Source: a virus | Reading direction: 5' to 3' (one strand) | DNA length: 64,000 bases | Virus record (IMG/VR): IMGVR_UViG_3300012943_000031 | Coordinates: 1 to 64,000 of that record | In this document: piece after piece, positions 6,832 through 55,125 of the stretch | Layout: each line of letters opens with the position of its first letter | How positions within the stretch are numbered: the stretch's first letter is position 1 | Notes under the pieces: generated by a model | Told to the model about the DNA's origin: nothing | Database searches by the model: none | What the model saw: only the letters and a program-made list of their open reading frames with translations | Position numbers and translations under genes: made by a program

Positions 6832-6903
6832 TACTGAGTACGGGATTCGAACCCGTGTGCCTCCCGTGAAAGGGGAGTGAACTAACCACTATTCTAACTC
6901 AGC
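6832..6903 (-). tRNA. tRNA-Glu(TTC)
   Basis: Acceptor GCTGAGT/ACTCAGT, anticodon arm CTCCC-CTTTCAC-GGGAG, GGTTCGAATCC T-arm; no encoded CCA. Confidence 0.92.
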
Positions 6904-7336: not shown

Positions 7337-7688
7337 CGTCTAGTAATTTTCGGTAAATTGATATTGATTGTCTTGCCTCAGAGACTAACCTACCATATTG
7401 TATACGCAGTAAATCTACCTCATGTCTCTCAATGACTAGATTCTTCTTTATATTATTGATGGTCTTCTCATTGTCATCAAGAGTGTCAATTCTATGTGCA
7501 GTGGATAGCAACATGATATTTGCTGTCAGCACAATAGCTAATGAAACAGCCAATATACAGGCATACAAGATGACAACAGATTGATTATGAGGGCCGGGTA
7601 AGAATGTTCCCATTGGATTCACTACACCAAATAGGAATACAGGAATTATCATAATATTGGATAATATAATCCATCTACGTAGTTTCAT
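7263..7688 (-). CDS. Hypothetical membrane protein
   Basis: Two N-terminal hydrophobic helices followed by a coiled coil. Confidence 0.6.
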   Translation of the reverse strand: MKLRRWIILSNIMIIPVFLFGVVNPMGTFLPGPHNQSVVILYACILAVSLAIVLTANIMLLSTAHRIDTLDDNEKTINNIKKNLVIERHEVDLLRIQYGRLVSEARQSISIYRKLLDDEEIRIQQAKKPSNKATETASGGT

Positions 7689-9054
7689 GGTTCCTCCTTT
7701 GTGGTTTAAATTGTTTAATCATTTGTTTCCAATTTCCCTCATTGAGAGTCCCCCTATCCTGCCATTCCAGAGCTTTACCCATTAATGAACCCATTTCTCT
7801 ACCTTGTGTATAACCAATTTCCATTAGTTTTTCACCAGTAACTATTGGCTCCATAGCGTTGGATTCCAATAATTCTTTAGCTCTGTGTTGTCCAATGTCT
7901 GGGGTATATTTAGCCAATGGAGGACGACCAGACAGGTCACACCTGCATACTTCAACCAGTTGTTCATAAGTTAAATTTTTTGCCATTAGTTTGCGTAATG
8001 TTCTCCTAATCACCTTTTCTGACACACCAGTACGAATCATATGCAATTCAACCATAGTTTCTATTTGTCTGATAGTTTTCTTATCAGCAAAATGAATACG
8101 GGTTAACATAGCACGTGTTGGTTTCCATCCTTCAGTCTCGTGACCAATAGACTTTATAGGTAAATCTTTGTTATAGAATACTCCTTTAGTTAAGGGATAA
8201 TCTCCTATAGTTGTAGTTGATACTTTACCTAAATCGTGACAAATCATACATATACGTGTAAACCAATCTTTTGCTTCATCTAGTGTATACATAGTATGCA
8301 TAAACACATCACCTTCTGGATGGTGTAATGGTGATTGTGGTACACCAATGCAATCATGTAGTTCCTTGAAATGATGTGGTAACCATCCAACCTGACGTAA
8401 GAACATAAAGAACACTGATGGCATTTCAGCAGTCTTGAGCATCTTATTTAACTCCATACCTACTCTCTCAGCAGATATATCGGTGGGTTCCATGCTCTTA
8501 CACATGGTAAACAACTCCACTGACGGTTGAAACTCAGGAAAACGTGCCAAGAAACGTGCTGCTCTATATACACGTAAAGAATCCTCCTTAAATGCTATAG
8601 ATGTGGGAGTAAGAAAACTATGTGCAATATGATCTCTTCCCATATATGGATCAACATACTCACCATGAATAACTTCTTTAGCTATTGCATTGATTGTCAA
8701 ATCCCTACGTGCTAAATCCTGTTCAATAGTTACTCCTTCAGTAACTACATCAAAATCTTTACGTGTACCACCAACTAATGTTTCCTTTCTAGCCATAGCA
8801 AAGTCAACTTTTTGACCATCTATATCTGCAATCCATACAGGAAATTTCTGTCCTACTAGTGGAGTTACAGATTCACAGTGTTCAAGGAGTATATCCTCAA
8901 CCTGTCTTGGGTTGGTAACCCCGACCAGACATATATCTATGTCATCAGTCTCGATTCCCATCAATTCATCTCTGACACATCCACCTACATAGTAGGATTT
9001 AATATGATGTTGAGACAAAATCTGGGCTATTTGTTTCAGTTTCTTCTCCAACAT
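7675..9054 (-). CDS. cca: Class II tRNA nucleotidyltransferase (CCA-adding enzyme) with HD domain
   Basis: YYVGGCVRD...DDIDI, ARKE, DLARRDLTINAIA, EDSLRVYRAARF, ISAERV, HHPEGDVFMHT and HDLGK motifs. Confidence 0.93.
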   Translation of the reverse strand: MLEKKLKQIAQILSQHHIKSYYVGGCVRDELMGIETDDIDICLVGVTNPRQVEDILLEHCESVTPLVGQKFPVWIADIDGQKVDFAMARKETLVGGTRKDFDVVTEGVTIEQDLARRDLTINAIAKEVIHGEYVDPYMGRDHIAHSFLTPTSIAFKEDSLRVYRAARFLARFPEFQPSVELFTMCKSMEPTDISAERVGMELNKMLKTAEMPSVFFMFLRQVGWLPHHFKELHDCIGVPQSPLHHPEGDVFMHTMYTLDEAKDWFTRICMICHDLGKVSTTTIGDYPLTKGVFYNKDLPIKSIGHETEGWKPTRAMLTRIHFADKKTIRQIETMVELHMIRTGVSEKVIRRTLRKLMAKNLTYEQLVEVCRCDLSGRPPLAKYTPDIGQHRAKELLESNAMEPIVTGEKLMEIGYTQGREMGSLMGKALEWQDRGTLNEGNWKQMIKQFKPQRRNHETT

Positions 9055-9253
9055 AGTCAATAATTTTATGGAGTTCAGTAACAGCTATTAACTTAACTGC
9101 TCTATCACCCGTTTGTTTTTCAATTTCCTGAATAATTTCCTTGACACTATGAAGATTCTTGAAAGACTCACCAAATGATATAGATTTCAAACCTCTCTCA
9201 CTGGTAATAACATGAGCTTCATATGTGTAAGCAACGAGATATAGTTCTTTCAT
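8999..9253 (-). CDS. Hypothetical protein
   Basis: ORF track; A-rich leader before the ATG. Confidence 0.55.
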   Translation of the reverse strand: MKELYLVAYTYEAHVITSERGLKSISFGESFKNLHSVKEIIQEIEKQTGDRAVKLIAVTELHKIIDYVGEETETNSPDFVSTSY

Positions 9254-12532: not shown

Positions 12533-12546
12533 AATAATGTTTTTAG

Positions 12547-12620
12547 ACTTCACGACAGGATTCGAACCTGTGAACACTTGGTTTGCTGCCAAGGTGTTTG
12601 GGCCACTCACACACATGAAG
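12547..12620 (-). tRNA. tRNA-Cys(GCA), atypical A33
   Basis: Acceptor CTTCATG/CGTGAAG, U73, anticodon arm CTTGG-CAGCAAA-CCAAG, T-arm ACAGG-TTCGAAT-CCTGT. Confidence 0.8.
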
Positions 12621-46568: not shown

Positions 46569-47675
46569 ATGGCTTGTAACGAACAAAATCCATGCAATCA
46601 AGACCCATGCCCAGATTTATATGACAACTGTGGCTGTGTTAATCCAAATACGTTTGGATGTACTACCTATACAGGGACATCATTAGAATGTCTTGATATA
46701 GACAATGGTACAAATGGGGATGATGTATTGGGTAAAATTGAAGAGGCTGTATGTGACCTTCAGGAGAACAAAGGTAAAGTTCTTATTGATGGCACAGATA
46801 CATGTCCTGAATACCTATTTGATAAACTAGAAGAAGGTACTAATATCTCTTTCAATATCACTGGAACAGGATGTGATAGAAAATTAGTTATTAATGCAGT
46901 AGAAGGTGGTGAACCAGTAGATGTTAATGTAAAAATTACATCTAATGACACAACTTCTGGATACCTTGACCAAAAGATTCAGACAGGTACATACTTAACT
47001 AAATCTGTAGTTTCTCCTACAGCTAATGAAAAACTAAGATTAGACGTAAATGTAGCATCTTTAGTATCTGGAGATTCAGGTAACCAATTAACAATTGGAG
47101 GTGATGGTGGTCTTAAGACTTTATATACTGCACCTGATGGAAGTGAAACTAAGGTTATGCAGGGTACAGGAACTACTGTAACAGGTACTGGTACTGTAAG
47201 TGATCCTTACATAGTATCTACTAACCCGACTATCCAAGTAGCACGTCCATGTTTTGATGGAGTATGGAGAAACATAACATTGGCCCTAACAGGTAATGTG
47301 AATGTTGTTTATGCATCAGGAACACCTCAGTTCAGGTATCGTTTTGATGGTACTATTGAGTTTAGAGGTTCAATTACCTACACAGTTGATTTCGGAGCAT
47401 ACACTACTGCTAACAGAAAATACACCATCCCTATGGGAAGTATTGCTGTAACATGTGTAACTGCTGGTGAATTAATTGGCACAAAAGACTTAAAAGGAAT
47501 AAATTATATAGATGTACCACAGGCTGGTGCTGACCAATATACACAAATGTATGGATACATACTACGTATGTCAGCACAGAACTTAACTTTAGAGTTCCAG
47601 TCTTCGTTTATTAACAGTACATCAAAATCTATAGTGGTTAATTTGGAAGGAGCAGTAGTTCATCCAAATATATAA
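46569..47675 (+). CDS. Putative tail fibre protein
   Basis: Cys-rich N-terminus, repeated VxxxxxDTxxxYLxxK, VTGTGTVSDPY motif, beta-rich C-terminus. Confidence 0.6.
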   Translation: MACNEQNPCNQDPCPDLYDNCGCVNPNTFGCTTYTGTSLECLDIDNGTNGDDVLGKIEEAVCDLQENKGKVLIDGTDTCPEYLFDKLEEGTNISFNITGTGCDRKLVINAVEGGEPVDVNVKITSNDTTSGYLDQKIQTGTYLTKSVVSPTANEKLRLDVNVASLVSGDSGNQLTIGGDGGLKTLYTAPDGSETKVMQGTGTTVTGTGTVSDPYIVSTNPTIQVARPCFDGVWRNITLALTGNVNVVYASGTPQFRYRFDGTIEFRGSITYTVDFGAYTTANRKYTIPMGSIAVTCVTAGELIGTKDLKGINYIDVPQAGADQYTQMYGYILRMSAQNLTLEFQSSFINSTSKSIVVNLEGAVVHPNI

Positions 47676-47720
47676 TAACTATTGAAAACCTCGGTTGTTG
47701 GTTCTCCGAGAACAGTTTAT

Positions 47721-47744
47721 AGGGCCATCTCTATGGCCCTTTTT
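47721..47744 (+). terminator. Intrinsic terminator insulating the tRNA island
   Basis: AGGGCCAT-ctct-ATGGCCCT-TTTT. Confidence 0.75.
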
Positions 47745-47852
47745 ATCTGGCACAATTTTTGAACATTATAAATATAAAAGCTATGACAATCTTAAAAGGT
47801 GGAGGATGTGGATGTGGTGGAAAAAAATAATTTCCCATTTTCACAAAATAAA

Positions 47853-47884
47853 TTTGGAATTTGCCAAATTACTTCGTATATTTG
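47853..47884 (+). promoter_or_regulatory. Promoter of tRNA operon 1
   Basis: TTTG-N20-TATATTTG. Confidence 0.85.
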
Positions 47885-47888
47885 CATT

Positions 47889-47978
47889 ATGAATTTACAT
47901 CGTACACATACATGGTTTACTACTTGTCCCCAATGTCCATTTGGAGGAGAAGGGTGTTGTATGTGTGAAAATAAATAA
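47889..47978 (+). CDS. Leader peptide 1 (attenuator), MNLHRTHTWFTTCPQCPFGGEGCCMCENK
   Basis: ATG 4 nt after the -7 box. Codons 4-18 use only H,R,T,W,F,C,P,Q, the amino acids of the downstream tRNAs. Confidence 0.8.
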   Translation: MNLHRTHTWFTTCPQCPFGGEGCCMCENK

Positions 47979-48039
47979 GTTTTTTCTTATTCATACTTAA
48001 AAACCCTTCAGTAATCCAATCACAACTGAAGGGTTTTTT
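47904..48039 (+). terminator. Attenuator 1 (1:2, 2:3 antiterminator, 3:4 terminator)
   Basis: 1:2 ACACATACA 47904-12 / TGTATGTGT 47958-66. 2:3 GAAGGGT 47949-55 / ACCCTTC 48003-09, plus GTATG/CATAC and AATAAG/CTTATT. 3:4 AAACCCTTCAGT / ACTGAAGGGTTT with U-tract. Confidence 0.8.
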
Positions 48040-48047
48040 CTTTTTAT

Positions 48048-48123
48048 CGGGTAGTGGGAGAATGGTTAGTCCACTATGTTTGGGGCATAGAAAATGTCAG
48101 TTCGAGTCTGATCTACCCGACCA
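48048..48123 (+). tRNA. tRNA-Pro(TGG)
   Basis: Cloverleaf, anticodon arm CTATG-TTTGGGG-CATAG, CCA encoded. Confidence 0.92.
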
Positions 48124-48129
48124 AATAAT

Positions 48130-48205
48130 GCCAGTGTAGCACAACAGGTAGTGCAGTACTCTTGTAAAGTAAAGGTTGCAAGTTCGATTCTTGTCACTGG
48201 CTCCA
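48130..48205 (+). tRNA. tRNA-Thr(TGT)
   Basis: Loop CTTGTAA, CCA encoded. Confidence 0.92.
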
Positions 48206-48213
48206 AATTATAT

Positions 48214-48287
48214 GGCCGTATAGCCAAGTGGTAAGGCACATGTCTGCAAAACTTTGATCCCCAGTTCGAATCTGGGTACGGCTTCCA
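48214..48287 (+). tRNA. tRNA-Cys(GCA)
   Basis: Loop CTGCAAA, U73, CCA encoded. Confidence 0.92.
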
Positions 48288-48290
48288 TAT

Positions 48291-48365
48291 GGTGCACTAA
48301 CTCAATGGTAGAGTTCCTCCCTGAAAAGGAGGGTGTTCCCAGTTCAAGTCTGGGGTGTACCACCA
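48291..48365 (+). tRNA. tRNA-Phe(GAA)
   Basis: Loop CTGAAAA, CCA encoded. Confidence 0.92.
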
Positions 48366-48368
48366 CAT

Positions 48369-48439
48369 ACGGGTATGGTGAAATGGTATCATAACAGTCT
48401 CCAAAACTGCTGTTCAGGGTTCGAATCCTTGTACCCGTG
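48369..48439 (+). tRNA. tRNA-Trp(CCA)
   Basis: Loop CTCCAAA, G73. Confidence 0.9.
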
Positions 48440-48491
48440 CTTTTTCTTATTCCCACATTTCCCTGAGAAATCAAACTTGTGGGTTTCGTAT

Positions 48492-48565
48492 TGTCTCATG
48501 GTGTAATGGCAACATAAGAAGCTTTGACCTTCTTGTTTCAGGTTCGAGCCCTGATGGGACATCCA
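48492..48565 (+). tRNA. tRNA-Gln(TTG)
   Basis: AGAAG-CTTTGAC-CTTCT, CCA encoded. Confidence 0.9.
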
Positions 48566-48570
48566 AATAT

Positions 48571-48641
48571 TACCTTATAGTGTAATGGTAACACACCACT
48601 CTCTGAAAGTGTTGTTTAAGGTTCGAGTCCTTATAAGGTAA
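48571..48641 (+). tRNA. tRNA-Gln(CTG)
   Basis: Loop CTCTGAA. Confidence 0.9.
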
Positions 48642-48643
48642 CT

Positions 48644-48717
48644 GTGACTATAGCTTAATGGTTTAGAGCCCTTGGTTGTGACCCAAGGTAGTGTCAGTTC
48701 GAATCTGATTAGTCACC
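48644..48717 (+). tRNA. tRNA-His(GTG)
   Basis: CTTGG-TTGTGAC-CCAAG, C73; T rather than G at -1. Confidence 0.9.
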
Positions 48718-48722
48718 TAAAT

Positions 48723-48793
48723 GCCCTATTAGTATAATGGAAGTATCTGAGAATACGAATCTCAGGGTAGGAGTTCAAATCTTCTATAGGGTT
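48723..48793 (+). tRNA. tRNA-Arg(ACG)
   Basis: TGAGA-ATACGAA-TCTCA. Confidence 0.85.
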
Positions 48794-48820
48794 CTGGTAC
48801 ACTTCTTGCTATATGAAAGT

Positions 48821-48997
48821 ATGGTAATGAAAGGTAAAAATAAACTAGAAAGAATGGAATTACGTGCTGCTAAAAGATTTAACAGACGTTCTAAGAAAAT
48901 AAAATTCCATCTTACTAATGATTGGAGTTGGACATTTCCTATCCCTAAAGAGGGAATTCCAAAAATAGTTGAAGAAATATTTGGAAACGGCAAATAA
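48821..48997 (+). CDS. Small basic hypothetical protein
   Basis: MVMKGKNKLERMELRAAKRFNRR...; the longer start in the track overlaps tRNA-Arg. Confidence 0.5.
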   Translation: MVMKGKNKLERMELRAAKRFNRRSKKIKFHLTNDWSWTFPIPKEGIPKIVEEIFGNGK

Positions 48998-49011
48998 ATG
49001 TCGTATCTTTG
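48980..49011 (+). promoter_or_regulatory. Promoter of tRNA operon 2
   Basis: TTTG-N20-TATCTTTG. Confidence 0.85.
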
Positions 49012-49038
49012 TATTATAAAATTTAAAAGCAGCAAATA

Positions 49039-49113
49039 ATGTACTTAATAAATATGATAGTGGATAGAATTAATGGGGCAGAGAAATCTGGCTCTGGACT
49101 TCTATTGTCATAA
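49039..49113 (+). CDS. Leader peptide 2 (attenuator), MYLINMIVDRINGAEKSGSGLLLS
   Basis: Codons 4-16 give I,N,M,V,D,R,G,A,E,K, exactly the ten amino acids of the downstream tRNAs. Confidence 0.8.
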   Translation: MYLINMIVDRINGAEKSGSGLLLS

Positions 49114-49177
49114 TCATAGTACTGATTACCAATATTTTAGAAGCCCAGAGCCTACGAAAGTTAGCTCTGGGTTTTTT
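49053..49177 (+). terminator. Attenuator 2
   Basis: 1:2 TATGATAGTGGA / TCTATTGTCATA. 2:3 GGCTCTGGACTTCTA 49090-104 / TAGAAGCCCAGAGCC 49138-152 (14 of 15 pair). 3:4 AGCCCAGAGC / GCTCTGGGTT with U-tract. Confidence 0.85.
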
Positions 49178-49180
49178 AAT

Positions 49181-49253
49181 GCCCTTGTAGCAAACTGGTT
49201 GTAGGCAATAGTCTTTTAAACTATGGGGTCTGGTTCGATTCCAGACGGGGGTA
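49181..49253 (+). tRNA. tRNA-Lys(TTT)
   Basis: ATAGT-CTTTTAA-ACTAT. Confidence 0.88.
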
Positions 49254-49261
49254 CACAATAT

Positions 49262-49333
49262 GCAGGATTAATTCAATGGTAGAAATCCATCTTTACATGG
49301 TGGAAGCTGGGAGTTCGAGTCTCTCATCCTGTA
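49262..49333 (+). tRNA. tRNA-Val(TAC)
   Basis: CCATC-TTTACAT-GGTGG. Confidence 0.88.
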
Positions 49334-49339
49334 CAATAA

Positions 49340-49411
49340 CTCTCTATAGCACAATGGAAGTGTAACTGCCTTCTAAGCAGTTTGGTATAGGTTCGAATCC
49401 TATTAGAGAGT
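49340..49411 (+). tRNA. tRNA-Arg(TCT)
   Basis: ACTGC-CTTCTAA-GCAGT. Confidence 0.9.
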
Positions 49412-49456
49412 CAGGTCAGTTTTCCAATTCTGCGTGGAGTACAAAATTGGATATAT

Positions 49457-49528
49457 TCCTCATTAGCTCAATGGTAGAGCGCAAAGCTGTTAACTTTGGA
49501 GATTTAGGTTCGAGTCCTAAGTGGGGAG
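49457..49528 (+). tRNA. tRNA-Asn(GTT)
   Basis: CAAAG-CTGTTAA-CTTTG, G73. Confidence 0.92.
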
Positions 49529-49538
49529 CATAATTACA

Positions 49539-49613
49539 TGTAGGGTGGACTGGAGATGGTTCCAGCTTGGTCTCATAAGCCAAATGACAGGGGTTCGAAT
49601 CCCTTCCCTGCAT
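49539..49613 (+). tRNA. tRNA with CAT anticodon (Met; initiator vs elongator unresolved)
   Basis: TTGGT-CTCATAA-GCCAA. Confidence 0.85.
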
Positions 49614-49618
49614 CTATA

Positions 49619-49771
49619 CTGTAAGGTGGTGAAATAGGCAGACACATCCACTTGTCTCGTGGACACAGATAAAGAAATAGATTAGGTATAATGGGGTTGA
49701 CCACTAATGTTTAACTTATTGTGTATCTAATTGAATCTCTGTATGAGTGGTTCAAATCCCTCCCTTACAGC
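49619..49771 (+). ncRNA. tRNA-like RNA (GTC anticodon) with an ~80-nt hairpin variable arm
   Basis: Acceptor CTGTAAGG/CCTTACAG, D-arm GTG-AAATAGGCAGA-CAC, TCCAC-TTGTCTC-GTGGA, long hairpin 49664-49744, T-loop TTCAAAT. Confidence 0.7.
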
Positions 49772-49776
49772 AACAT

Positions 49777-49850
49777 TGCACATTAGCCAAGAGGTCTAAG
49801 GCATCACTCTCATAAGGTGACATTCATGAGTTCGAATCTCATATGTGCAA
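49777..49850 (+). tRNA. tRNA with CAT anticodon (Met or lysidine-Ile2)
   Basis: TCACT-CTCATAA-GGTGA, A73. Confidence 0.88.
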
Positions 49851-49879
49851 CATTTGATAATTTTCCTTATATTTGTAAA

Positions 49880-50347
49880 ATGGAAAAGTATTTCAGAACA
49901 GAGCAAGGAGAAAGAGTAAATATAGTTGAACACACTTTGGAACAAATCCAGAAGTGGCCCAACCTAGAGATTTACATAGCAACAGACTCTCAAGACCAAG
50001 GTGGAAAGAGTAGATATGCTACAGTAATTGTCTACAGATATGGGAAAAGAGGTGCTCACTATATATACTTTAGAGAAGACGTACCACGTTGTAAGGACAT
50101 GTATACTCGTCTATATGATGAGGCTGTTCGTACAATTGATACAGCACAGTTAATAGACAGTGAGATACCTGTTAAGTTTGCCGGGTTAGAGTTTGACTAC
50201 AATAACCTACCAAGACATAACAGTAACAAATTACTCTCTTCTGTAAGAGGATGGGTAACAGGATTAAATTACAATGCTGTCTTCAAAGGTGATGAATTAG
50301 TAGCTGCAAAAGCTGCTGACCATGTTTGTAGACACAAGAATATATAA
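49880..50347 (+). CDS. RNase H-like YkuK/DUF458 family protein
   Basis: IYIATDSQ...YATVIV...RLYDEAVRTI...DYN...AAKAAD motifs; ATG after TATATTTG. Confidence 0.8.
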   Translation: MEKYFRTEQGERVNIVEHTLEQIQKWPNLEIYIATDSQDQGGKSRYATVIVYRYGKRGAHYIYFREDVPRCKDMYTRLYDEAVRTIDTAQLIDSEIPVKFAGLEFDYNNLPRHNSNKLLSSVRGWVTGLNYNAVFKGDELVAAKAADHVCRHKNI

Positions 50348-50382
50348 GAGATGGATTGCAGCACTCTTTAAAATGCTGATTT

Positions 50383-50456
50383 GCAGAGGTAGTTAAATGG
50401 TATAATGCCTTCCTTCCAAGTAGGATTTGGGAGTTCGATTCTCCTCCTCTGCTCCA
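50383..50456 (+). tRNA. tRNA-Gly(TCC)
   Basis: Loop CTTCCAA, U73, CCA encoded. Confidence 0.92.
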
Positions 50457-50457
50457 T

Positions 50458-50529
50458 GCATTAGTAGCTCAATGGTAGAGTACTACCTTGCCAAGGTAGG
50501 AGTTGACAGTTCGAATCTGTTCTAGTGCT
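50458..50529 (+). tRNA. tRNA-Gly(GCC)
   Basis: CTACC-TTGCCAA-GGTAG. Confidence 0.92.
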
Positions 50530-50535
50530 CAATAA

Positions 50536-50609
50536 CATGCTGTCATCTAATGGCTTAGGATAACGGACTTTCAATTCGTTCATGTCGGGTTCAATTCCCA
50601 CCAGCATGA
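50536..50609 (+). tRNA. tRNA-Glu(TTC)
   Basis: ACGGA-CTTTCAA-TTCGT. Confidence 0.88.
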
Positions 50610-50632
50610 CTAACAACTAAAGTCGAAGGACA

Positions 50633-51031
50633 ATGAGTAAACAAAGTAACCAAAAGAAGACTGAACAATTGGGTATGCCAATTGGTACAGCAAGTAATAG
50701 ATTGAGGAAATCAATTATCTTTAATCTGTTAAAGAAAGCAAATGAGAATTTCTGTTTCCAATGTGGAGCAGAAATAGAATTAGAGAATGAATTATCAATA
50801 GAACATAAGACTCCATATCTGGATTCTGAAGACCCACAAGGTCTGTTCTTTGATTTAGATAATATAGCTTTTTCTCACCTGTCATGCAATGTAGGTGCTG
50901 CAAGACAGACTCATAGAGTAAAGAATCATGGCCTGACTCTCTACAAAGATGGTTGTAGATGTGGTATTTGTGTGACAGCACAAAAAGAATCTTGGTCAAA
51001 ATATGATAAGAAGAGAAGAGTAAAAACGTAG
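50633..51031 (+). CDS. HNH endonuclease (free-standing, homing-type)
   Basis: CFQCG...LSIEHKTP...NIAFSHLSCN and C-terminal GCRCGIC. Confidence 0.8.
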   Translation: MSKQSNQKKTEQLGMPIGTASNRLRKSIIFNLLKKANENFCFQCGAEIELENELSIEHKTPYLDSEDPQGLFFDLDNIAFSHLSCNVGAARQTHRVKNHGLTLYKDGCRCGICVTAQKESWSKYDKKRRVKT

Positions 51032-51103
51032 GTGTAGTGTAACGGTTTAGCATATCTGCCTGTCACGCAGACGGTAGGAGTTCGAATCTCCCATCTACGG
51101 CCA
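51027..51103 (+). tRNA. tRNA-Asp(GTC), apparent 8/4 fold
   Basis: CGTAGGTG/CATCTACG 8-bp acceptor plus G-CCA, 4-bp T-stem GGAG/CTCC, anticodon arm TCTGC-CTGTCAC-GCAGA. Confidence 0.88.
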
Positions 51104-51105
51104 AT

Positions 51106-51178
51106 GTTGTTGTAGCTTAATGGTTAAAGCTCATGTCTTATACACATGTGAGTGAGAGTTCGAGTCTCTCCAACAACA
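51106..51178 (+). tRNA. tRNA-Ile(TAT)
   Basis: CATGT-CTTATAC-ACATG. Confidence 0.88.
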
Positions 51179-51187
51179 CACAAATAT

Positions 51188-51262
51188 GTTGATATAGCTC
51201 AATGGTGGAGCACTTGTCTGATACACAAGAGGATGAAGGTTCGAGTCCCTCTATCAACACCA
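51188..51262 (+). tRNA. tRNA-Ile(GAT)
   Basis: CTTGT-CTGATAC-ACAAG, CCA encoded. Confidence 0.92.
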
Positions 51263-51265
51263 TAT

Positions 51266-51338
51266 GGGGGTGAAGTTCTAGTGGATGAACACCTGTCTTG
51301 CACACAGGAAGTTGTGGATTCGAGTTTCACCACCTCCA
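51266..51338 (+). tRNA. tRNA-Ala(TGC)
   Basis: G3.U70 pair, CCTGT-CTTGCAC-ACAGG. Confidence 0.9.
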
Positions 51339-51341
51339 CAT

Positions 51342-51372
51342 AACCTACTGATAATCAGTCAGTAGGTTTTTT
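51342..51372 (+). terminator. Terminator ending tRNA operon 2
   Basis: AACCTACTGA-taatcag-TCAGTAGGTT-TTTT. Confidence 0.8.
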
Positions 51373-51409
51373 ATTTGGTAAACTGGCAGGATTTTTGTAC
51401 CTTTATAGT

Positions 51410-51883
51410 ATGATAACAGCAATAGTTATGCTCAGTATAGCACTTATAGTGGCAATTCTTCTTCTCCTTAGAAAGGAGGAATGTGAAGAGTCAGGATATA
51501 TTGAAATATCATTTATTATTAATAATACAAAAATAACAGGAAAAAACATGGCATTAACAGCATTCCCACAACAAAAAACACCTTTCATTCTACAGCCGGT
51601 AGATAGAAAAGGTAATCCAGCACAAGTTGAAGCTGGAACAGTAGTTTTCACAGTAGATGATCCATCAATTGCAGAAGTTCAGGTAGACCCAACAAATGAG
51701 TTGGCAGGTACTATCATAACTAAAGCAGTAGGTGTAACACAGATTAATTATTCTGCTGATGCTGACTTAGGAGAAGGTGTAACAACTATTTCAGGTTTTG
51801 ACGCAATTGAAGTTAAAGCTGAACAAGCAGTTGGATTTGGTATCACTTTTGGCCCATCAGAGGACATAGAGGAAACACCTTAA
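51410..51883 (+). CDS. Membrane-anchored Ig-like (Big-2-like) protein
   Basis: TTTG-N20-TACCTTTA promoter, N-terminal TM, FTVDDPSIAEV...ITKAVGVTQI pattern; an alternative ATG lies at 51548. Confidence 0.6.
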   Translation: MITAIVMLSIALIVAILLLLRKEECEESGYIEISFIINNTKITGKNMALTAFPQQKTPFILQPVDRKGNPAQVEAGTVVFTVDDPSIAEVQVDPTNELAGTIITKAVGVTQINYSADADLGEGVTTISGFDAIEVKAEQAVGFGITFGPSEDIEETP

Positions 51884-51891
51884 AAGAAAAA

Positions 51892-51923
51892 TTTGGAATT
51901 TTATTCTCAGTACCGTATATTTG
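51892..51923 (+). promoter_or_regulatory. Promoter of the suppressor tRNA / Pth2 unit
   Basis: TTTG-N20-TATATTTG, overlapped by a 12-bp inverted repeat (51908-51941). Confidence 0.8.
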
Positions 51924-51934
51924 TGAAAGTATAC

Positions 51935-52006
51935 GGTACTGTAGTTTAATGGCAAAACAGCAGTCTCTAAAACTGAATAGTGTGGGTTCGATCCCCATCA
52001 GTACCA
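51935..52006 (+). tRNA. Amber suppressor tRNA (CTA anticodon)
   Basis: Acceptor GGTACTG/CAGTACC, A73, CAGT-CTCTAAA-ACTG, GTGGG-TTCGATC-CCCAT. Confidence 0.88.
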
Positions 52007-52023
52007 CAATTAAACCAAATACA

Positions 52024-52500
52024 ATGAGTAAGTAGATGGAAATCCAGAAACTGGTAACTGTGACCAGAACTGACTTACCTGAAGGTTATCAGGCAGTACA
52101 GTCAACACATGCAGCAATTGATTTTGTTTTTGAACATCCTACACGTGCTGGCCCTTGGCATAAAAACAGTAATACGTTAGTGATGTTAACAGTAAAGGAC
52201 ACGAAAGGTCTCCTTCACCTAATGAGGAAGTGTGATTATCTGTCTATAGCTTATACTGTTTTCAGGGAACCAGATATTGGTAACCAAATCACAGCCATCT
52301 GTATGGAGCCTCATGAGGAGGTTTACAAGATGGTTAGTAAGCTACCTTTATTAATACCAAAAACACAATCAAATGAATACCAAGACACTATCAATCAAAG
52401 CCAAGTTAGCCAACCAAGTGAGAACAATCTTCTACAAGAAGTGGGATGTGACGAAAATCACAGAACACGAACAGAAGAGGATGTTGAGAGAGTTAGCTGA
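52024..52500 (+). CDS. Pth2-family peptidyl-tRNA hydrolase-like protein, with in-frame TAG at codon 4
   Basis: KLVTVTRTDLPEGYQAVQSTHA...LVMLTV...FREPDIGNQITAI fits the PTH2 pattern. ATG AGT AAG TAG ATG at 52024-52038, with the A-rich leader before the first ATG. Confidence 0.75.
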
Positions 52501-52648
52501 GTTAACTAAAGAAGTTCACTATGAGTTAAATCTCTACAAGGGTAAGAGAAGAGATAAGAAAATACTCTTAGAAAAGAGGTTAGAAGCCCCTCAAACAAAG
52601 ACCATGAAGAAGAAACTGAAAGGTCACAGAAAAGAAATTTCAAAATAA
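52373..52648 (+). CDS. Basic hypothetical protein
   Basis: ORF track; AAAAACACAATCAA leader. Confidence 0.55.
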   Translation: MNTKTLSIKAKLANQVRTIFYKKWDVTKITEHEQKRMLRELAELTKEVHYELNLYKGKRRDKKILLEKRLEAPQTKTMKKKLKGHRKEISK

Positions 52649-52649
52649 A

Positions 52650-52681
52650 TTTGGAAATCGTGAAAAAAGGTTGTATATTTG
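52650..52681 (+). promoter_or_regulatory. Promoter of tRNA operon 3
   Basis: TTTG-N20-TATATTTG. Confidence 0.85.
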
Positions 52682-52685
52682 CAGT

Positions 52686-52733
52686 ATGAAAATAACATCA
52701 ACATATAGTTCCTTGTCGTTACTCTATAGCTAA
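52686..52733 (+). CDS. Leader peptide 3 (attenuator), MKITSTYSSLSLLYS
   Basis: Codons 7-15 are only Y,S,L, the amino acids of the downstream tRNAs; ATG 4 nt after the -7 box. Confidence 0.8.
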   Translation: MKITSTYSSLSLLYS

Positions 52734-52814
52734 TAGAGCCGGGAATACTATGTGTCAAAAATAACTATCTTGATTTTACATAACATGACCCGGTATTTCT
52801 ATACTGGGTTTTTT
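52702..52814 (+). terminator. Attenuator 3
   Basis: 1:2 CATATAGTTCC / GGAATACTATGTG with inner CTCTAT/ATAGAG. 2:3 CCGGG 52739-43 / CCCGG 52789-93, plus TATGTG/TACATA. 3:4 ACCCGGTAT-ttct-ATACTGGGT-TTTTT. Confidence 0.78.
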
Positions 52815-52821
52815 GTTTTAT

Positions 52822-52895
52822 GGCATTGTGATGGAACTGGGATACATACCTGTCTTAGAAACAGTTTTTTGTGGGTTCGAATCCCACCTTTGCCA
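52822..52895 (+). tRNA. tRNA-Leu(TAG), short variable region
   Basis: CTGT-CTTAGAA-ACAG; acceptor stem has two T.T mismatches. Confidence 0.8.
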
Positions 52896-52898
52896 CAT

Positions 52899-52977
52899 GC
52901 TCCTATGGTGGAACGGTATACACGTCAGACTTAAAATCTGATCTTAATTGATGAGAGTTCGAATCTCTCTAGGAGCA
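52899..52977 (+). tRNA. tRNA-Leu(TAA)
   Basis: TCAGA-CTTAAAA-TCTGA, A73. Confidence 0.9.
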
Positions 52978-52978
52978 C

Positions 52979-53204
52979 AACAACCATAAACTATCGAGTT
53001 ACAACTTGCTGGGTACTTACTGGGTACTTGCGGGGTGTAATTAGGAAACTCAGCACATCTCTGCTTAAAATGGGAGGACTAGCAATCCGTTATTACCAAA
53101 GAGGATGAAACTCAAACAGACTAAGAAGGTGAGCAGTTCTATGAAGTCGGGTTAGAGGATTAGACAAATGATAGTTGATACAGAAAGCTGGTTATTGGGT
53201 TGTT
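52979..53204 (+). ncRNA. rnpB: Minimal RNase P RNA (~226 nt)
   Basis: P1 AACAACC/GGTTGTT, P2 AACTATCG/TGATAGTT, CR-I AGGAAACTCAGC, TAGACAAATG, CR-V ACAGAAAGCTGGTTA; P4 AAC(T)CAGC/GCTGGTT with the bulged U. Confidence 0.82.
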
Positions 53205-53209
53205 AAATT

Positions 53210-53299
53210 GGTGGGCCCCAGATGACAGAGGTACTCCGTCTTGAAAACGGCTATAACGGTAATCATTCCGTTGTAAGGGTTGGACTCCCTTGCCCACCT
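53210..53299 (+). tRNA. tRNA-Ser(TGA), atypical D-arm and T-loop
   Basis: GGTGGGC/GCCCACC, CCGT-CTTGAAA-ACGG, long variable arm, T-loop TTGGACT. Confidence 0.78.
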
Positions 53300-53306
53300 C
53301 AAATAA

Positions 53307-53396
53307 GGAGAATAGACGAATATTGGTTTGTCGTAACTACCTGCTAAGTAGTTCTGTGTAACAGCAGTAAGAGTTCAATTCTCTTATTCTCCGCCA
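53307..53396 (+). tRNA. tRNA-Ser(GCT)
   Basis: ACTAC-CTGCTAA-GTAGT, variable arm, G73, CCA encoded. Confidence 0.9.
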
Positions 53397-53400
53397 ATAT

Positions 53401-53473
53401 GGGATAGACAGCAGGGCACTGTAGACGGTCTGTAAAACCGAACTATGTAGAGTTTCGAATACTCCCTATCCCA
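53401..53473 (+). tRNA. tRNA-Tyr(GTA), short variable region
   Basis: GGGATAG/CTATCCC, A73, CGGT-CTGTAAA-ACCG. Confidence 0.8.
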
Positions 53474-53512
53474 CATTAACTTTTCTTTAACAGAAAAAAG
53501 TCTTACCTTTGT

Positions 53513-53537
53513 AGCCTCCTTCGGGAGGTTATTTTTT
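53513..53537 (+). terminator. Terminator ending tRNA operon 3
   Basis: AGCCTCC-TTCG-GGAGGTT-ATTTTTT. Confidence 0.75.
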
Positions 53538-53823
53538 GCCACCCAGTTATGGTACTGAGGTAAACGCCTACACGAGGTAGGATAGTTCCTTACAGAAGTT
53601 GGATTGGTAGCCCTAAATAAGGGTGAGATTTTCTCCAATAGTGGCGCAATGTTTTGAGTAAGAGGTAGTTGGTATCCAAGGGATTGGTCATTTCTATGAC
53701 GTGTGAGGAGGATACTGGGGTAACAATGCACTGGCTATCTTCAAGTGAGAAACAGTAAGTTAAAAAATTCATAAGGGATTGGTGTGTCTAATTGATGGCA
53801 CATTAATTGATTACATATTAAGT

Positions 53824-55125
53824 ATGATTATAAACAACATAACACAGAAATTTTTAGACAATCCGGGATACCTGAAAAATGGTGCTGGATACTTAGCAGA
53901 ACAATGGAAATGTTCAAAGGACGAAATTTATGAGGCCAAATCACAAGCCAGACAAATAATGGCAATGACTGAGGCAATAGAAAGAGCTAATGATACAGCA
54001 AACAGTTTTGAAGTTCAGGTTAAATCAGAACCACTGAAGTATACTGGATCAGAAACTACTCCAGATGGAACTGTAAAGAAATACGAATCAGACAAACCTC
54101 TAACACCAAAAGAAATCGAAGAGTTAGCAGGAGTTGATGGGATAAATACATACGTAGCTAGAGTTTGGGATAAGTTACTACCAAATGGTAAATGGACATA
54201 CTCAATCGATATTAGATACAGAGTAAAAGATTTCTATGATAGAAAGGAGCTAAACAGTAAGTTACTGGAAATCATGTCTTCTGTAGAAAGAACACCATTC
54301 AATCCAATGTCTGTTCCAAAAGGATTTAACAATAGATGCTTAAACATTCTCCTAGCTGATGACCACGTAGGTGCAATCAACGTAACTAACTTGTTTGATA
54401 ATCCTCATGTCACCTATAGGGATAGACTGTTAATGATACTAGATGAAGTAGCAGATTTGGGACAGGAATTTGATGAGGTACATATCATCTCATTAGGTGA
54501 CCAACTAAATGGATGGAACTCTCAGACTACTAGAGGTGGTCATGAGGTAAAGAGTAAGAGCAATAAGGAACAGTTTGACGAGTATGTTGCTGCAAGAATG
54601 GAGTTCTATACTAACATATTTGAATCAGGAATATCTCAGAACTACTATGTACATGATGTGGAGAACAGTAATCACTCAGGTCTGGGAATGTCATATATGG
54701 CTAATCAGGCACTGAAGTTGTGGATAGATGCAAAATATCCTTGGGTAATCCAAGAATCCATAACTGACATGGTAGGTGGGTTCCAATATGGACAACATGT
54801 TGTTATGTTTGGACATGGTAAGGATGAGAAATTCCAGATCAGACCTATGCCAGCAGTACTAAATGACAAGACTGACTTGTTTTTATATGACTTAGCACAA
54901 AATAAAGGTTACTCACCATATAATGATTCAATCACTTTCTATAAGGGAGACTTACACCAGCATGGTTTACAGAATGGTAAGTTTGGTAGATATGTGAATG
55001 TACAATCATTGGCCGGTAATTCCGACTATGGTGACTTAAACTTTGGAAATACTAAAGGTGGGGCTCTACTTGAAATACTACAAAAAGATAGTTACAAGAT
55101 AACCTCACAAGCAATTTGGTTCTAA
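53824..55125 (+). CDS. Calcineurin-like metallophosphoesterase-fold protein
   Basis: LADDHVG, SLGDQLNG, NSNH, GHG and GDLH motifs; ATG at 53824. Confidence 0.75.
   Translation: MIINNITQKFLDNPGYLKNGAGYLAEQWKCSKDEIYEAKSQARQIMAMTEAIERANDTANSFEVQVKSEPLKYTGSETTPDGTVKKYESDKPLTPKEIEELAGVDGINTYVARVWDKLLPNGKWTYSIDIRYRVKDFYDRKELNSKLLEIMSSVERTPFNPMSVPKGFNNRCLNILLADDHVGAINVTNLFDNPHVTYRDRLLMILDEVADLGQEFDEVHIISLGDQLNGWNSQTTRGGHEVKSKSNKEQFDEYVAARMEFYTNIFESGISQNYYVHDVENSNHSGLGMSYMANQALKLWIDAKYPWVIQESITDMVGGFQYGQHVVMFGHGKDEKFQIRPMPAVLNDKTDLFLYDLAQNKGYSPYNDSITFYKGDLHQHGLQNGKFGRYVNVQSLAGNSDYGDLNFGNTKGGALLEILQKDSYKITSQAIWF

Follow-up and report, generated by a model that had tools for sequence, protein, structure and literature searches.

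What controls the tRNA genes of a phage that carries them in three blocks, each with its own leader upstream? We addressed this question entirely by computation in a 64,000-nucleotide stretch (the window) of a 107 kb phage genome, where ARAGORN called 26 tRNA genes on the plus strand between 48048 and 53396 and, at a relaxed threshold, a further tRNA-Tyr(gta) at about 53401-53474. Another gene, at about 53208-53303, resembles a tRNA for Ser(tga) and can be aligned with the Ser(tga) genes called in related phages. On this basis the 28 tRNA or tRNA-like genes counted in an earlier note on this DNA are divided among three units of nine, 14 and five genes, apart from which there is a CTA suppressor tRNA with its own promoter. 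All 20 amino acids are covered, as that note had stated. Unit 1 (48048-48794; this and all following features are on the plus strand unless noted) encodes tRNAs for Pro, Thr, Cys, Phe, Trp, Gln, Gln, His and Arg(acg). Unit 2 (49181-51339) encodes Lys, Val, Arg(tct), Asn, Met, a tRNA-like gene, Met, Gly, Gly, Glu, Asp, Ile, Ile and Ala, contains inserted RNase H-like (49880-50347) and HNH (50633-51031) ORFs, and is closed by a terminator at 51342-51368. Its tRNA-like gene, at 49615-49776, is of odd form. Unit 3 (52822-53474), with a closing terminator at 53511-53532, encodes Leu(tag), Leu(taa), the Ser(tga)-like gene, Ser(gct) and Tyr(gta), with an RNase P RNA-like element (52979-53204) after the two Leu genes. 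This element matched RF00373 from end to end at 35.5 bits (E = 9.5e-9 for the stretch searched), short of the gathering score of 84; both conserved core motifs can be aligned, and most of the specificity domain is absent. A further real tRNA, for Glu, lies outside the units on the minus strand (6832-6903) and has no leader.

Each unit follows one layout, in which a host-type promoter is followed by a short ORF, a hairpin, a U-tailed terminator and the first tRNA. The promoter motif, TTTG and TAnnTTTG separated by about 20 bases, occurs seven times in 64 kb compared to 2.4 expected, and four of the seven copies are in the tRNA region, at 47853, 48980, 51892 and 52650. Pattern searches thus placed a promoter with Bacteroidota-type -33 and -7 boxes upstream of unit 1 (47853-47884) and its counterparts upstream of unit 2 (48980-49011) and unit 3 (52650-52681), in agreement with the earlier description. 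The remaining copy directly drives the CTA suppressor tRNA (51892-52007), and all four tRNA promoters share the extended motif. The suppressor promoter has neither leader nor terminator and provides an internal contrast to the three units. The leader ORFs, described previously as 15-29 residues long, comprise 29 (47889-47978), 24 (49039-49113) and 15 codons (52686-52733) and begin 5, 28 and 5 nt after the -7 box, respectively. Since the ATG of leader 1 is only 5 nt past the -7 box, its mRNA is probably leaderless, and the leader mRNAs of this phage in general probably are so.

The amino acids encoded in the leaders correspond to the tRNAs downstream. A matched core of 15 codons in leader 1 (47898-47942) draws on eight amino acids and no others, namely His, Arg(CGT), Thr, Trp, Phe, Cys, Pro and Gln. 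The 13-codon core of leader 2 (49048-49086) draws on exactly ten, Ile, Asn, Met, Val, Asp, Arg(AGA), Gly, Ala, Glu and Lys, and the nine-codon core of leader 3 (52704-52730) on Tyr, Ser and Leu alone. Within the last, the four Ser codons are all different, as are the three Leu codons. The longest runs of residues from a leader's own unit (own-set residues) are therefore 15, 13 and 9, with every amino acid of the unit used, compared to runs of 1-4 when the leaders are scored against the other two units, which bears out the earlier claim that each core equals the set of its own operon. Random peptides of genome composition equalled the match of leaders 1, 2 and 3 in 0, 34 and 0 of 300,000 trials, and when all 1,570 small ATG ORFs in the genome were ranked for each set, the leader of that unit came first. 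A permutation test, proposed in the earlier note, gave the same picture: when the amino acids were randomly divided into three sets 200,000 times, no division equalled the observed leader-unit match. Arginine is divided by isoacceptor, with CGT in leader 1 accompanying tRNA-Arg(acg) and AGA in leader 2 accompanying tRNA-Arg(tct), as had been noted; the split is kept in relatives, and in all four genomes tabulated at the codon level leader 1 uses CGT or CGC and leader 2 uses AGA. Almost every codon of these cores, hereafter panels, has its cognate anticodon in its own unit. Most amino acids of a panel have just one or two codons in it, without the runs typical of his, phe and trp leaders, which may confer low sensitivity to mild shortage.

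All three leaders can form the overlapping helices attributed to them earlier, and in each the 1:2, 2:3 and 3:4 helices are mutually exclusive. The minimum-energy fold of each leader consists of a hairpin over the ORF and a U-tailed terminator hairpin (z-scores -4.5, -5.0 and -3.4). The terminators are GC-rich hairpins followed by U tracts and end 0-11 nt upstream of the first tRNA: terminator 1 (47999-48047) has arms at 47999-48012 and 48025-48038 and a U tract reaching the first tRNA, terminator 2 (49139-49180) has arms at 49139-49155 and 49160-49176, and terminator 3 (52787-52821) has its hairpin at 52787-52810. In attenuator 1, region 2 (47949-47960) can pair either with the strand coding for the core (1:2) or with the 5' arm of the terminator (2:3). 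Region 2 of attenuator 2 (49090-49103) comprises 14 nt complementary to the terminator 5' arm with one mismatch, while that of attenuator 3 (52738-52743) is located just 3' of the stop codon, within the footprint of a terminating ribosome. Predicted 2:3 duplex energies were -12.2, -23.0 and -12.3 kcal/mol for attenuators 1, 2 and 3, and were matched or exceeded by 8, 0 and 6 of 500 shuffles.

The panels are positioned relative to these helices. When we folded the leaders codon by codon with an assumed ribosome footprint that extended 15 nt back and 14 nt forward from the A-site codon, the terminator 5' arm paired with region 2 while the A site was in the panel, and was set free from region 2 once the ribosome was beyond it. 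The matched codons are thus located where, under the assumed footprint, a stall exposes the strand that pairs with the terminator 5' arm. Inside a stall window defined from the helices alone, blind to composition, own-set residues accounted for 80%, 100% and 88% of leaders 1, 2 and 3, while in the remainder of the ORFs they accounted for 34%, 55% and 12%, near the 27%, 58% and 18% expected from the genome. When the RNA ended short of region 4 and no ribosome was included, most leaders already preferred 2:3 in equilibrium folds, such that default termination would need either a ribosome at the stop codon or kinetic trapping in 1:2.

Related phages allowed the covariation survey suggested earlier. 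Five uncultured relatives (L001, L017, L064, L065 and L091) keep all three leader-unit pairs, and their leaders retain composition while residue order is shuffled and the helices change in compensating fashion. The order of units in L091 is 2-3-1, and each leader has relocated with its unit. The minimum-energy fold was a 1:2 hairpin plus terminator in 13 of 14 leaders, and of 17 leaders tested against 500 shuffles each, 13 had 2:3 complementarity that exceeded at least 490 shuffles and one more exceeded 465; the antiterminator was weak or not significant in the other three (L064 leaders 1 and 3, L091 leader 3). Pairing between regions 2 and 3 was stronger in cognate pairs than in pairs swapped across genomes, and one helix position is T:A, C:G or A:T depending on the genome. 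Some panels departed from a perfect match, with a Val inside panel 1 of L064 and no Met in panel 2 of two relatives. In a clade of three phages (L006, L007 and L010) with tRNA-Cys alone at the locus, a homologous leader and terminator are kept; His, Arg, Trp and Phe no longer occur in this leader, whose stall window has gained a Cys codon. The earlier note had named leaders left unchanged after a reshuffling of tRNA content as an outcome against its reading. Such retention was slight, consisting of the Pro, Thr and Gln codons still carried by the leaders of the Cys-only clade and a Glu codon in panel 2 of L064, whose tRNA-Glu has its own promoter.

A cultured phage of a different family, Cellulophaga phage phi38:1, also has three leaders, and these track its own, different division of tRNAs. 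There, Thr is grouped with Lys and Ile, Asn with Ser and Tyr, and Leu and Glu with Pro and His, and Arg is again split, between AGA and CGA. Own-set runs were 11 (16 if one Asn, a mismatch in leader A, is allowed), 16 and 13 residues, compared to 1-3 against its other units, and none of 200,000 random divisions equalled its leader-unit match.

Taken together, these results make it likely that the three loci are multivalent leader-peptide attenuators, in which a translating ribosome would govern transcription into one phage tRNA operon each. The attenuation proposed in the earlier note is supported accordingly, with every one of its proposed tests that could be computed giving a favorable outcome. 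In the literature we came across no earlier description of tRNA genes regulated in this manner. Under this model, a tRNA block is probably made only when its codons are decoded slowly. Host RNA polymerase would initiate at the Bacteroidota-type promoter and a ribosome, presumably coupled to it, would load immediately on the short ORF. If the panel is decoded fast, the ribosome would proceed over region 2 or to the stop codon and mask region 2, such that the 3:4 terminator hairpin forms and transcription stops a few bases before the first tRNA. If charged tRNA is scarce for any single panel codon, slow decoding would stall the ribosome on region 1 and leave region 2 free to pair with the terminator 5' arm, and polymerase would enter the tRNA genes. 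The new tRNAs would then turn the operon off again by negative feedback. As each panel represents the tRNAs of its own operon, down to the Arg isoacceptors, supply would track demand. Candidate causes of shortage include decay or shut-off of host tRNAs during infection, codon-usage mismatch, starvation and tRNA-cleaving defenses, and rescue from the last might be one role of the system.

Attenuators of this kind might instead sense only general translation capacity, responding to whether any ribosome loads and runs rather than to individual tRNAs. The alternative helices and terminators would function alike whatever the panel codons, and single codons per amino acid imply weak specificity, both in line with this explanation. 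It nevertheless leaves the composition match (0 of 200,000 random divisions), the Arg isoacceptor split, the confinement of the match to the structure-defined stall window and the different partition tracked by the phi38:1 leaders unexplained, and we regard it as improbable. We give even less credence to the possibility that the ORFs encode small functional peptides, such as a zinc-binding Cys-rich leader 1, with terminators that end small genes and a likeness to the tRNAs that reflects coincidence or compositional bias. The CxxC...CxxC pattern of leader 1, kept in all relatives including the Cys-only clade, would also fit a zinc-binding peptide, and a second conserved small ORF, rich in Gly/Cys, adjoins leader 1 and is fused to it in L065, in line with functional peptides. 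Yet leaders 2 and 3 lack the CxxC pattern and match their units equally well, the amino-acid set is kept between relatives while residue order shuffles, and chemically similar residues from outside the set are excluded (Tyr and Lys from panel 1, Leu from panel 2, Thr and Ile from panel 3). Moreover, no Pfam or PHROG family matched the leaders, the Cys-rich tail of leader 1 is region 2 and covaries with the terminator arm, and a terminator serving a peptide gene would separate the tRNAs from their sole promoter.

Equally remote, in our view, is direct sensing of tRNAs by the leader RNA, in which uncharged tRNAs on codon-like triplets would stabilize the antiterminator without translation. The triplets are by construction complementary to the anticodons of the downstream tRNAs, a point in its favor. 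They nonetheless lie in one frame directly after an ATG and are closed by a stop codon in 20 of 20 leaders examined, the matched stretch stops where a ribosome footprint would start to cover region 2, and up to 16 adjacent specifier triplets would be without precedent. A search of 47500-54500 for T-box or other riboswitch models in Rfam gave no match at E up to 1.

Ribosome-mediated attenuation, the reading we favor, would share features with several known systems. T-box riboswitches of Firmicutes sense tRNA charging through a terminator/antiterminator switch upstream of translation-related genes (PMC9177973). A switch of this type responsive to tRNA charging is also proposed here, but the T-box binds tRNA directly and ribosome-free, using a specifier loop and a conserved T-box motif. 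The trn operon of Anabaena sp. PCC 7120 is an array of supernumerary tRNAs, ordinarily silent and induced when translation is impaired, and is controlled at its promoter by the repressor TrcR, which binds direct repeats there (PMC8421152, PMC10272220); the terms 'leader peptide' and 'attenuat' are absent from both papers. It is one cellular operon with no codon-matched subsets, compared to three codon-matched units in the phage, and its promoter has TrcR repeats, whereas the phage promoters lead into a leader ORF and terminator. TrcR is a ribbon-helix-helix repressor, and its repeats overlap the -10 box and start site. Phage tRNAs have been described as an escape from tRNA-targeting defenses, replacing host tRNAs lost in infection (PMC11555353). 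That work addresses which tRNAs help, not gene regulation, and describes no sensing circuit.

In Escherichia coli, a Phe-rich leader controls phenylalanyl-tRNA synthetase (pheST) by attenuation. As in the phage model, leader-peptide attenuation there acts on a component of the translation apparatus and not on amino-acid synthesis, but pheST senses one amino acid and regulates a protein-coding gene in a cellular genome. Enterobacterial attenuators, in which a ribosome stalled at a hungry codon favors the antiterminator, include trp, his, phe and leu as well as the multivalent leaders of thr (Thr and Ile codons) and ilvGMEDA (Ile, Leu and Val codons). The pheL attenuator is reviewed in PMC3082878. 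The phage loci resemble these in their short 5' leader ORF, regulatory codons, 1:2, 2:3 and 3:4 helices and intrinsic terminator before the first gene. They differ in being phage-borne, in their Bacteroidota promoters, probably leaderless mRNAs and isoacceptor resolution (Arg CGY vs. AGA), and in panels of 3 to 10 amino acids, mostly once or twice each, rather than runs of one to three. Whereas the enterobacterial leaders regulate biosynthetic enzymes, those of the phage would regulate tRNAs, a product that would itself relieve the inducing stall.

The phage genome is a single contig of 106,836 bp, of which the window covers the first 64 kb; its terminase and portal matched crAss-type families, with an identity to known Crassvirales of only ~25%. 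Between 48048 and 53396, ARAGORN and Rfam identified 26 tRNA genes, all of them + strand. A tRNA-Tyr at ~53401–53474 emerged at a relaxed ARAGORN threshold, and a Ser(tga) tRNA-like gene (~53208–53303) could be aligned with called Ser(tga) genes of relatives. The Bacteroidota promoter motif occurred in four copies in the tRNA region, and three of these were followed by a short ORF on the + strand: leader 1 (47889–47978), leader 2 (49039–49113) and leader 3 (52686–52733). A hairpin and a U-tailed terminator lay 3′ of every leader ORF, with the terminator ending just 5′ of the first tRNA, and the promoter-ORF-terminator layout that the earlier note had described for three tRNA units was present at all three. 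Further terminators close unit 2 (51342–51368) and unit 3 (53511–53532). The fourth promoter directly precedes a tRNA with the suppressor anticodon CTA, without leader or terminator. Unit 3 comprises class II tRNAs (Leu, Ser, Tyr), unit 2 those for codons starting with A or G, and unit 1 those for codons starting with C or T, plus Thr.

Leader codons were compared with the tRNAs of the unit that each leader precedes. Codons 4–18 of leader 1 specified exclusively His, Arg, Thr, Trp, Phe, Cys, Pro and Gln, codons 4–16 of leader 2 exclusively Ile, Asn, Met, Val, Asp, Arg, Gly, Ala, Glu and Lys, and codons 7–15 of leader 3 exclusively Tyr, Ser and Leu. The amino acids of each such core, hereafter panel, were exactly those of the following unit's tRNAs with none missing, so the claimed identity of leader and operon sets was exact and complete for all three units. 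The longest runs against the two non-own units reached only 1–4 codons. Random peptides of genome composition attained the values of leaders 1, 2 and 3 in 0, 34 and 0 of 300,000 trials, and when the 20 amino acids were randomly split into sets of the same sizes, none of 200,000 splits reached the observed summed run of 37 (best 34, mean 9). Among the genome's 1,570 small ATG ORFs, each leader ranked first for its own set. Nearly every panel codon had its cognate anticodon in its own unit, and the match extended to isoacceptors of Arg, as had been claimed, with CGT alongside tRNA-Arg(acg) and AGA alongside tRNA-Arg(tct). Weak points are that each amino acid is represented by only one or two codons in a panel, and that a CxxC...CxxC pattern is conserved in leader 1.

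Folding placed the panels within mutually exclusive RNA structures. Among 14 leaders taken from the window and its relatives, 13 had a minimum-energy fold consisting of a hairpin between the panel-coding strand (region 1) and a strand near the ORF end (region 2), plus the terminator (regions 3:4). The 5′ arm of the terminator was also complementary to region 2. The resulting 2:3 antiterminator duplexes of leaders 1–3 had energies of −12.2, −23.0 and −12.3 kcal/mol; out of 500 dinucleotide shuffles, 8, 0 and 6 did as well or better. We then moved a ribosome footprint along the leaders one codon at a time, folding the RNA in the state that precedes synthesis of region 4. In these constrained folds, an A site within the panel left the terminator 5′ arm paired with region 2, and a ribosome beyond the panel covered region 2 and left that arm free for the terminator. 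The 3′ end of the matched stretch coincided with the onset of region 2 coverage to within one or two codons; leader tails therefore need not match. When the stall window was derived from the helices alone and own-set fractions were summed over 14 of 17 leaders (leaving out two from relative L091 and one from a clade retaining only tRNA-Cys), own-set residues made up 80% of the stall window in leader class 1 (34% in the rest of the ORF, 27% expected from the genome), 100% in class 2 (55% and 58%) and 88% in class 3 (12% and 18%). Antiterminators were weak in 3 of 17 leaders. A further weak point is that equilibrium folds without a ribosome favor 2:3, such that default termination requires a kinetic trap.

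We assessed whether leaders and units remained associated in uncultured relatives. Two array-bearing relatives (L001 and L017) and the Cys-only clade were reached via a protein encoded downstream of the array, and three more (L064, L065 and L091) via DNA patterns from the leaders. A search of this flank protein against genome contigs gave no match; an exact 17-mer of leader 1 had two matches, both by chance, and a 16-mer of leader 3 had more than 117, one of them a true relative. Protein searches also revealed many closer relatives (56–73% identity, contigs of 100–170 kb); the leader comparison covers the genomes named here. All array-bearing relatives kept the three leader-unit pairs, and their panels varied in residue order and length yet kept to the same amino-acid sets, apart from small panel-unit mismatches, which are a weak point. 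In L091 the units occurred in the order 2-3-1, and every leader had moved along with its own unit. Leader 3 of L064 was preceded by a constitutive promoter and tRNA-Met, and tRNA-Glu in this genome stood behind its own promoter. The Cys-only clade kept a homologous leader and terminator before its single tRNA-Cys; this leader had lost His, Arg, Trp and Phe and carried three Cys codons within five, and still held Pro, Thr and Gln codons. No tRNA array stood at this locus where the relative of the flank protein was more distant (L022–L036), and the lone tRNAs found there (Arg in L030, Met in L029) had no codon-matched leader. Relatives had different inserted ORFs, lying elsewhere in the arrays and in some cases having their own promoters.

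Regions 2, 3 and 4 changed in concert among relatives, with one position of the leader 2 helix being T:A, C:G or A:T depending on the genome, and cognate 2:3 duplexes were stronger than duplexes swapped between genomes. Helix co-variation was judged by per-genome duplex energies against shuffles and non-cognate partners; column-wise counts of compensatory pairs on a MAFFT alignment were distorted by register shifts and were not relied on.

Cellulophaga phage phi38:1, a cultured member of the Pervagoviridae, had three promoter-short ORF-terminator modules, one before each of three tRNA units (NC_021796.1, 35283–38800). Its partition of tRNAs differs from that of the window: unit A holds Ala-like, Lys, Ile, Gly, Met, Asp, Thr, Val and Arg(tct), unit B Tyr, two Ser, Asn, Trp, Phe and Cys, and unit C Pro, Glu, Gln, His, Leu and Arg(acg). 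Leaders A–C followed this partition, with own-set runs of 11 (or 16 if a single Asn is allowed), 16 and 13 compared to 1–3 against the other units, and none of 200,000 random splits reached these runs. Because the partitions differ, leader content tracks tRNA content across families, which is the co-variation that the earlier note had proposed to look for. Only 26, 6 and 3 of 500 shuffles did as well as or better than the 2:3 duplexes, and the stall profile had the same shape as in the window. Leader A encodes Arg by AGA, leader C by CGA. In NC_021796.1, the leader ORFs are annotated merely as parts of hypothetical proteins, and the Ala-like, Tyr, Trp and Cys tRNAs are unannotated. The phage uses host RNA polymerase and its infection RNA-seq has been published (PMC5335546), which makes the idea directly testable. 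The tRNA array of Bacteroides phage crAss001 (1600–5800) had no codon-matched leader; it starts with a promoter of the host type, followed by a four-codon ORF that lacks a terminator, so not all crAss-like phages share the design. Structured spacers of ~75 nt set its tRNAs apart.

Several other elements lie around the tRNA genes. Within unit 3, a 226-nt RNA (52979–53204, +) matched the model of archaeal RNase P RNA over its full length, with 35.5 bits (E 9.5e-9 in the searched stretch) where the gathering score is 84. Its conserved core motifs could be aligned and its specificity domain was mostly absent; possibly the phage encodes a miniature RNase P RNA here and transcribes it together with its substrates. 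L001 and L017 have no space for it at the corresponding place. In unit 2, a tRNA-like gene (49615–49776, +) had a D arm resembling class II, a perfect acceptor stem of 7 bp and ~75–80 extra nucleotides 3′ of the anticodon stem; with introns allowed, ARAGORN read it as a tRNA that has the anticodon CTA and an intron of 74 nt. This unit also contains an RNase H-like ORF (49880–50347) and an HNH endonuclease ORF (50633–51031, +) between tRNA genes. At 51892–52500 (+), the amber-suppressor tRNA (anticodon CTA) is followed by an ORF with a PTH2 peptidyl-tRNA hydrolase domain (Pfam E 6.7e-7), a pairing which suggests that TAG is a sense codon in part of the genome. Just upstream of promoter 1, a second small ORF (47785–47829, +) encodes a conserved Gly/Cys stretch. 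It is kept in L001 (2475–2537), in L006 of the Cys-only clade (~8741–8842) and on the reverse strand in L065, where it forms an in-frame fusion with leader 1; its counterpart in the Cys-only clade follows tRNA-Cys and has its own promoter. Its G-rich codons may matter as RNA. Outside the array, a second tRNA-Glu(ttc) (6832–6903, −; Rfam 62.9 bits) lies between protein genes without leader or terminator, near a gene for a CCA-adding enzyme (7675–9060, −; PHROG E 4.6e-80). An ARAGORN call of tRNA-Cys at 12546–12620 (−) was below the Rfam threshold.

All sequence-level defining features of leader-peptide attenuators were found in the window, and these parts recur and co-vary in the relatives. Composition, helices and co-variation supported in silico the attenuation proposed in the earlier note, and we regard multivalent leader-peptide attenuation of the tRNA operons, with a demand-driven and self-limiting tRNA supply, as probable. 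We infer translation of the leaders, coupling of ribosome and polymerase, the response and its trigger. Each leader would serve as a checklist, probing codon by codon whether the cell still decodes the codons served by the tRNA operon, and the operon would open only on failure to do so. The loss of tRNA could stem from a tRNA-cleaving defense, phage-induced host shut-off or starvation. It is possible, though we hold this tentatively, that in vivo each attenuator is an independent sensor at the isoacceptor level, such that loss of one host tRNA opens only the operon carrying its replacement and the new tRNAs close it again.

Other explanations accounted for the observations less well. Chemically similar out-of-set residues do not enter the panels of relatives, which argues for selection on the tRNAs queried rather than on the peptide, and we rejected the reading of the short ORFs as functional micropeptides since it leaves the main facts unexplained. 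The same main facts are left unexplained by a gate on general translation. They are also left unexplained by T-box-like direct sensing of tRNA, which was rejected; Rfam models with E up to 1 gave no T-box match at 47500–54500.

The usual view of phage tRNA genes is that they are spares against tRNA-cutting defenses or serve constitutively to help with codon usage, and to our knowledge hardly anything is known of their regulation. Leader-peptide attenuation is a textbook bacterial mechanism. Its use as a checklist would make tRNA supply demand-driven and self-limiting, and would extend attenuation from 1–3 sensed amino acids to 10; a virus would then monitor host translation down to single tRNA species. 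If the tentative reading of independent sensors is true, this would be the first case of such attenuation acting on tRNA genes, and Bacteroidota phages of unrelated families would share a general, inducible counter-measure against tRNA depletion. No account of tRNA genes controlled by leader peptides turned up in full-text literature searches. The nearest published inducible tRNA array is the Anabaena trn operon, on which the repressor TrcR acts via promoter repeats; leader peptides and attenuation go unmentioned in both papers (PMC8421152, PMC10272220).
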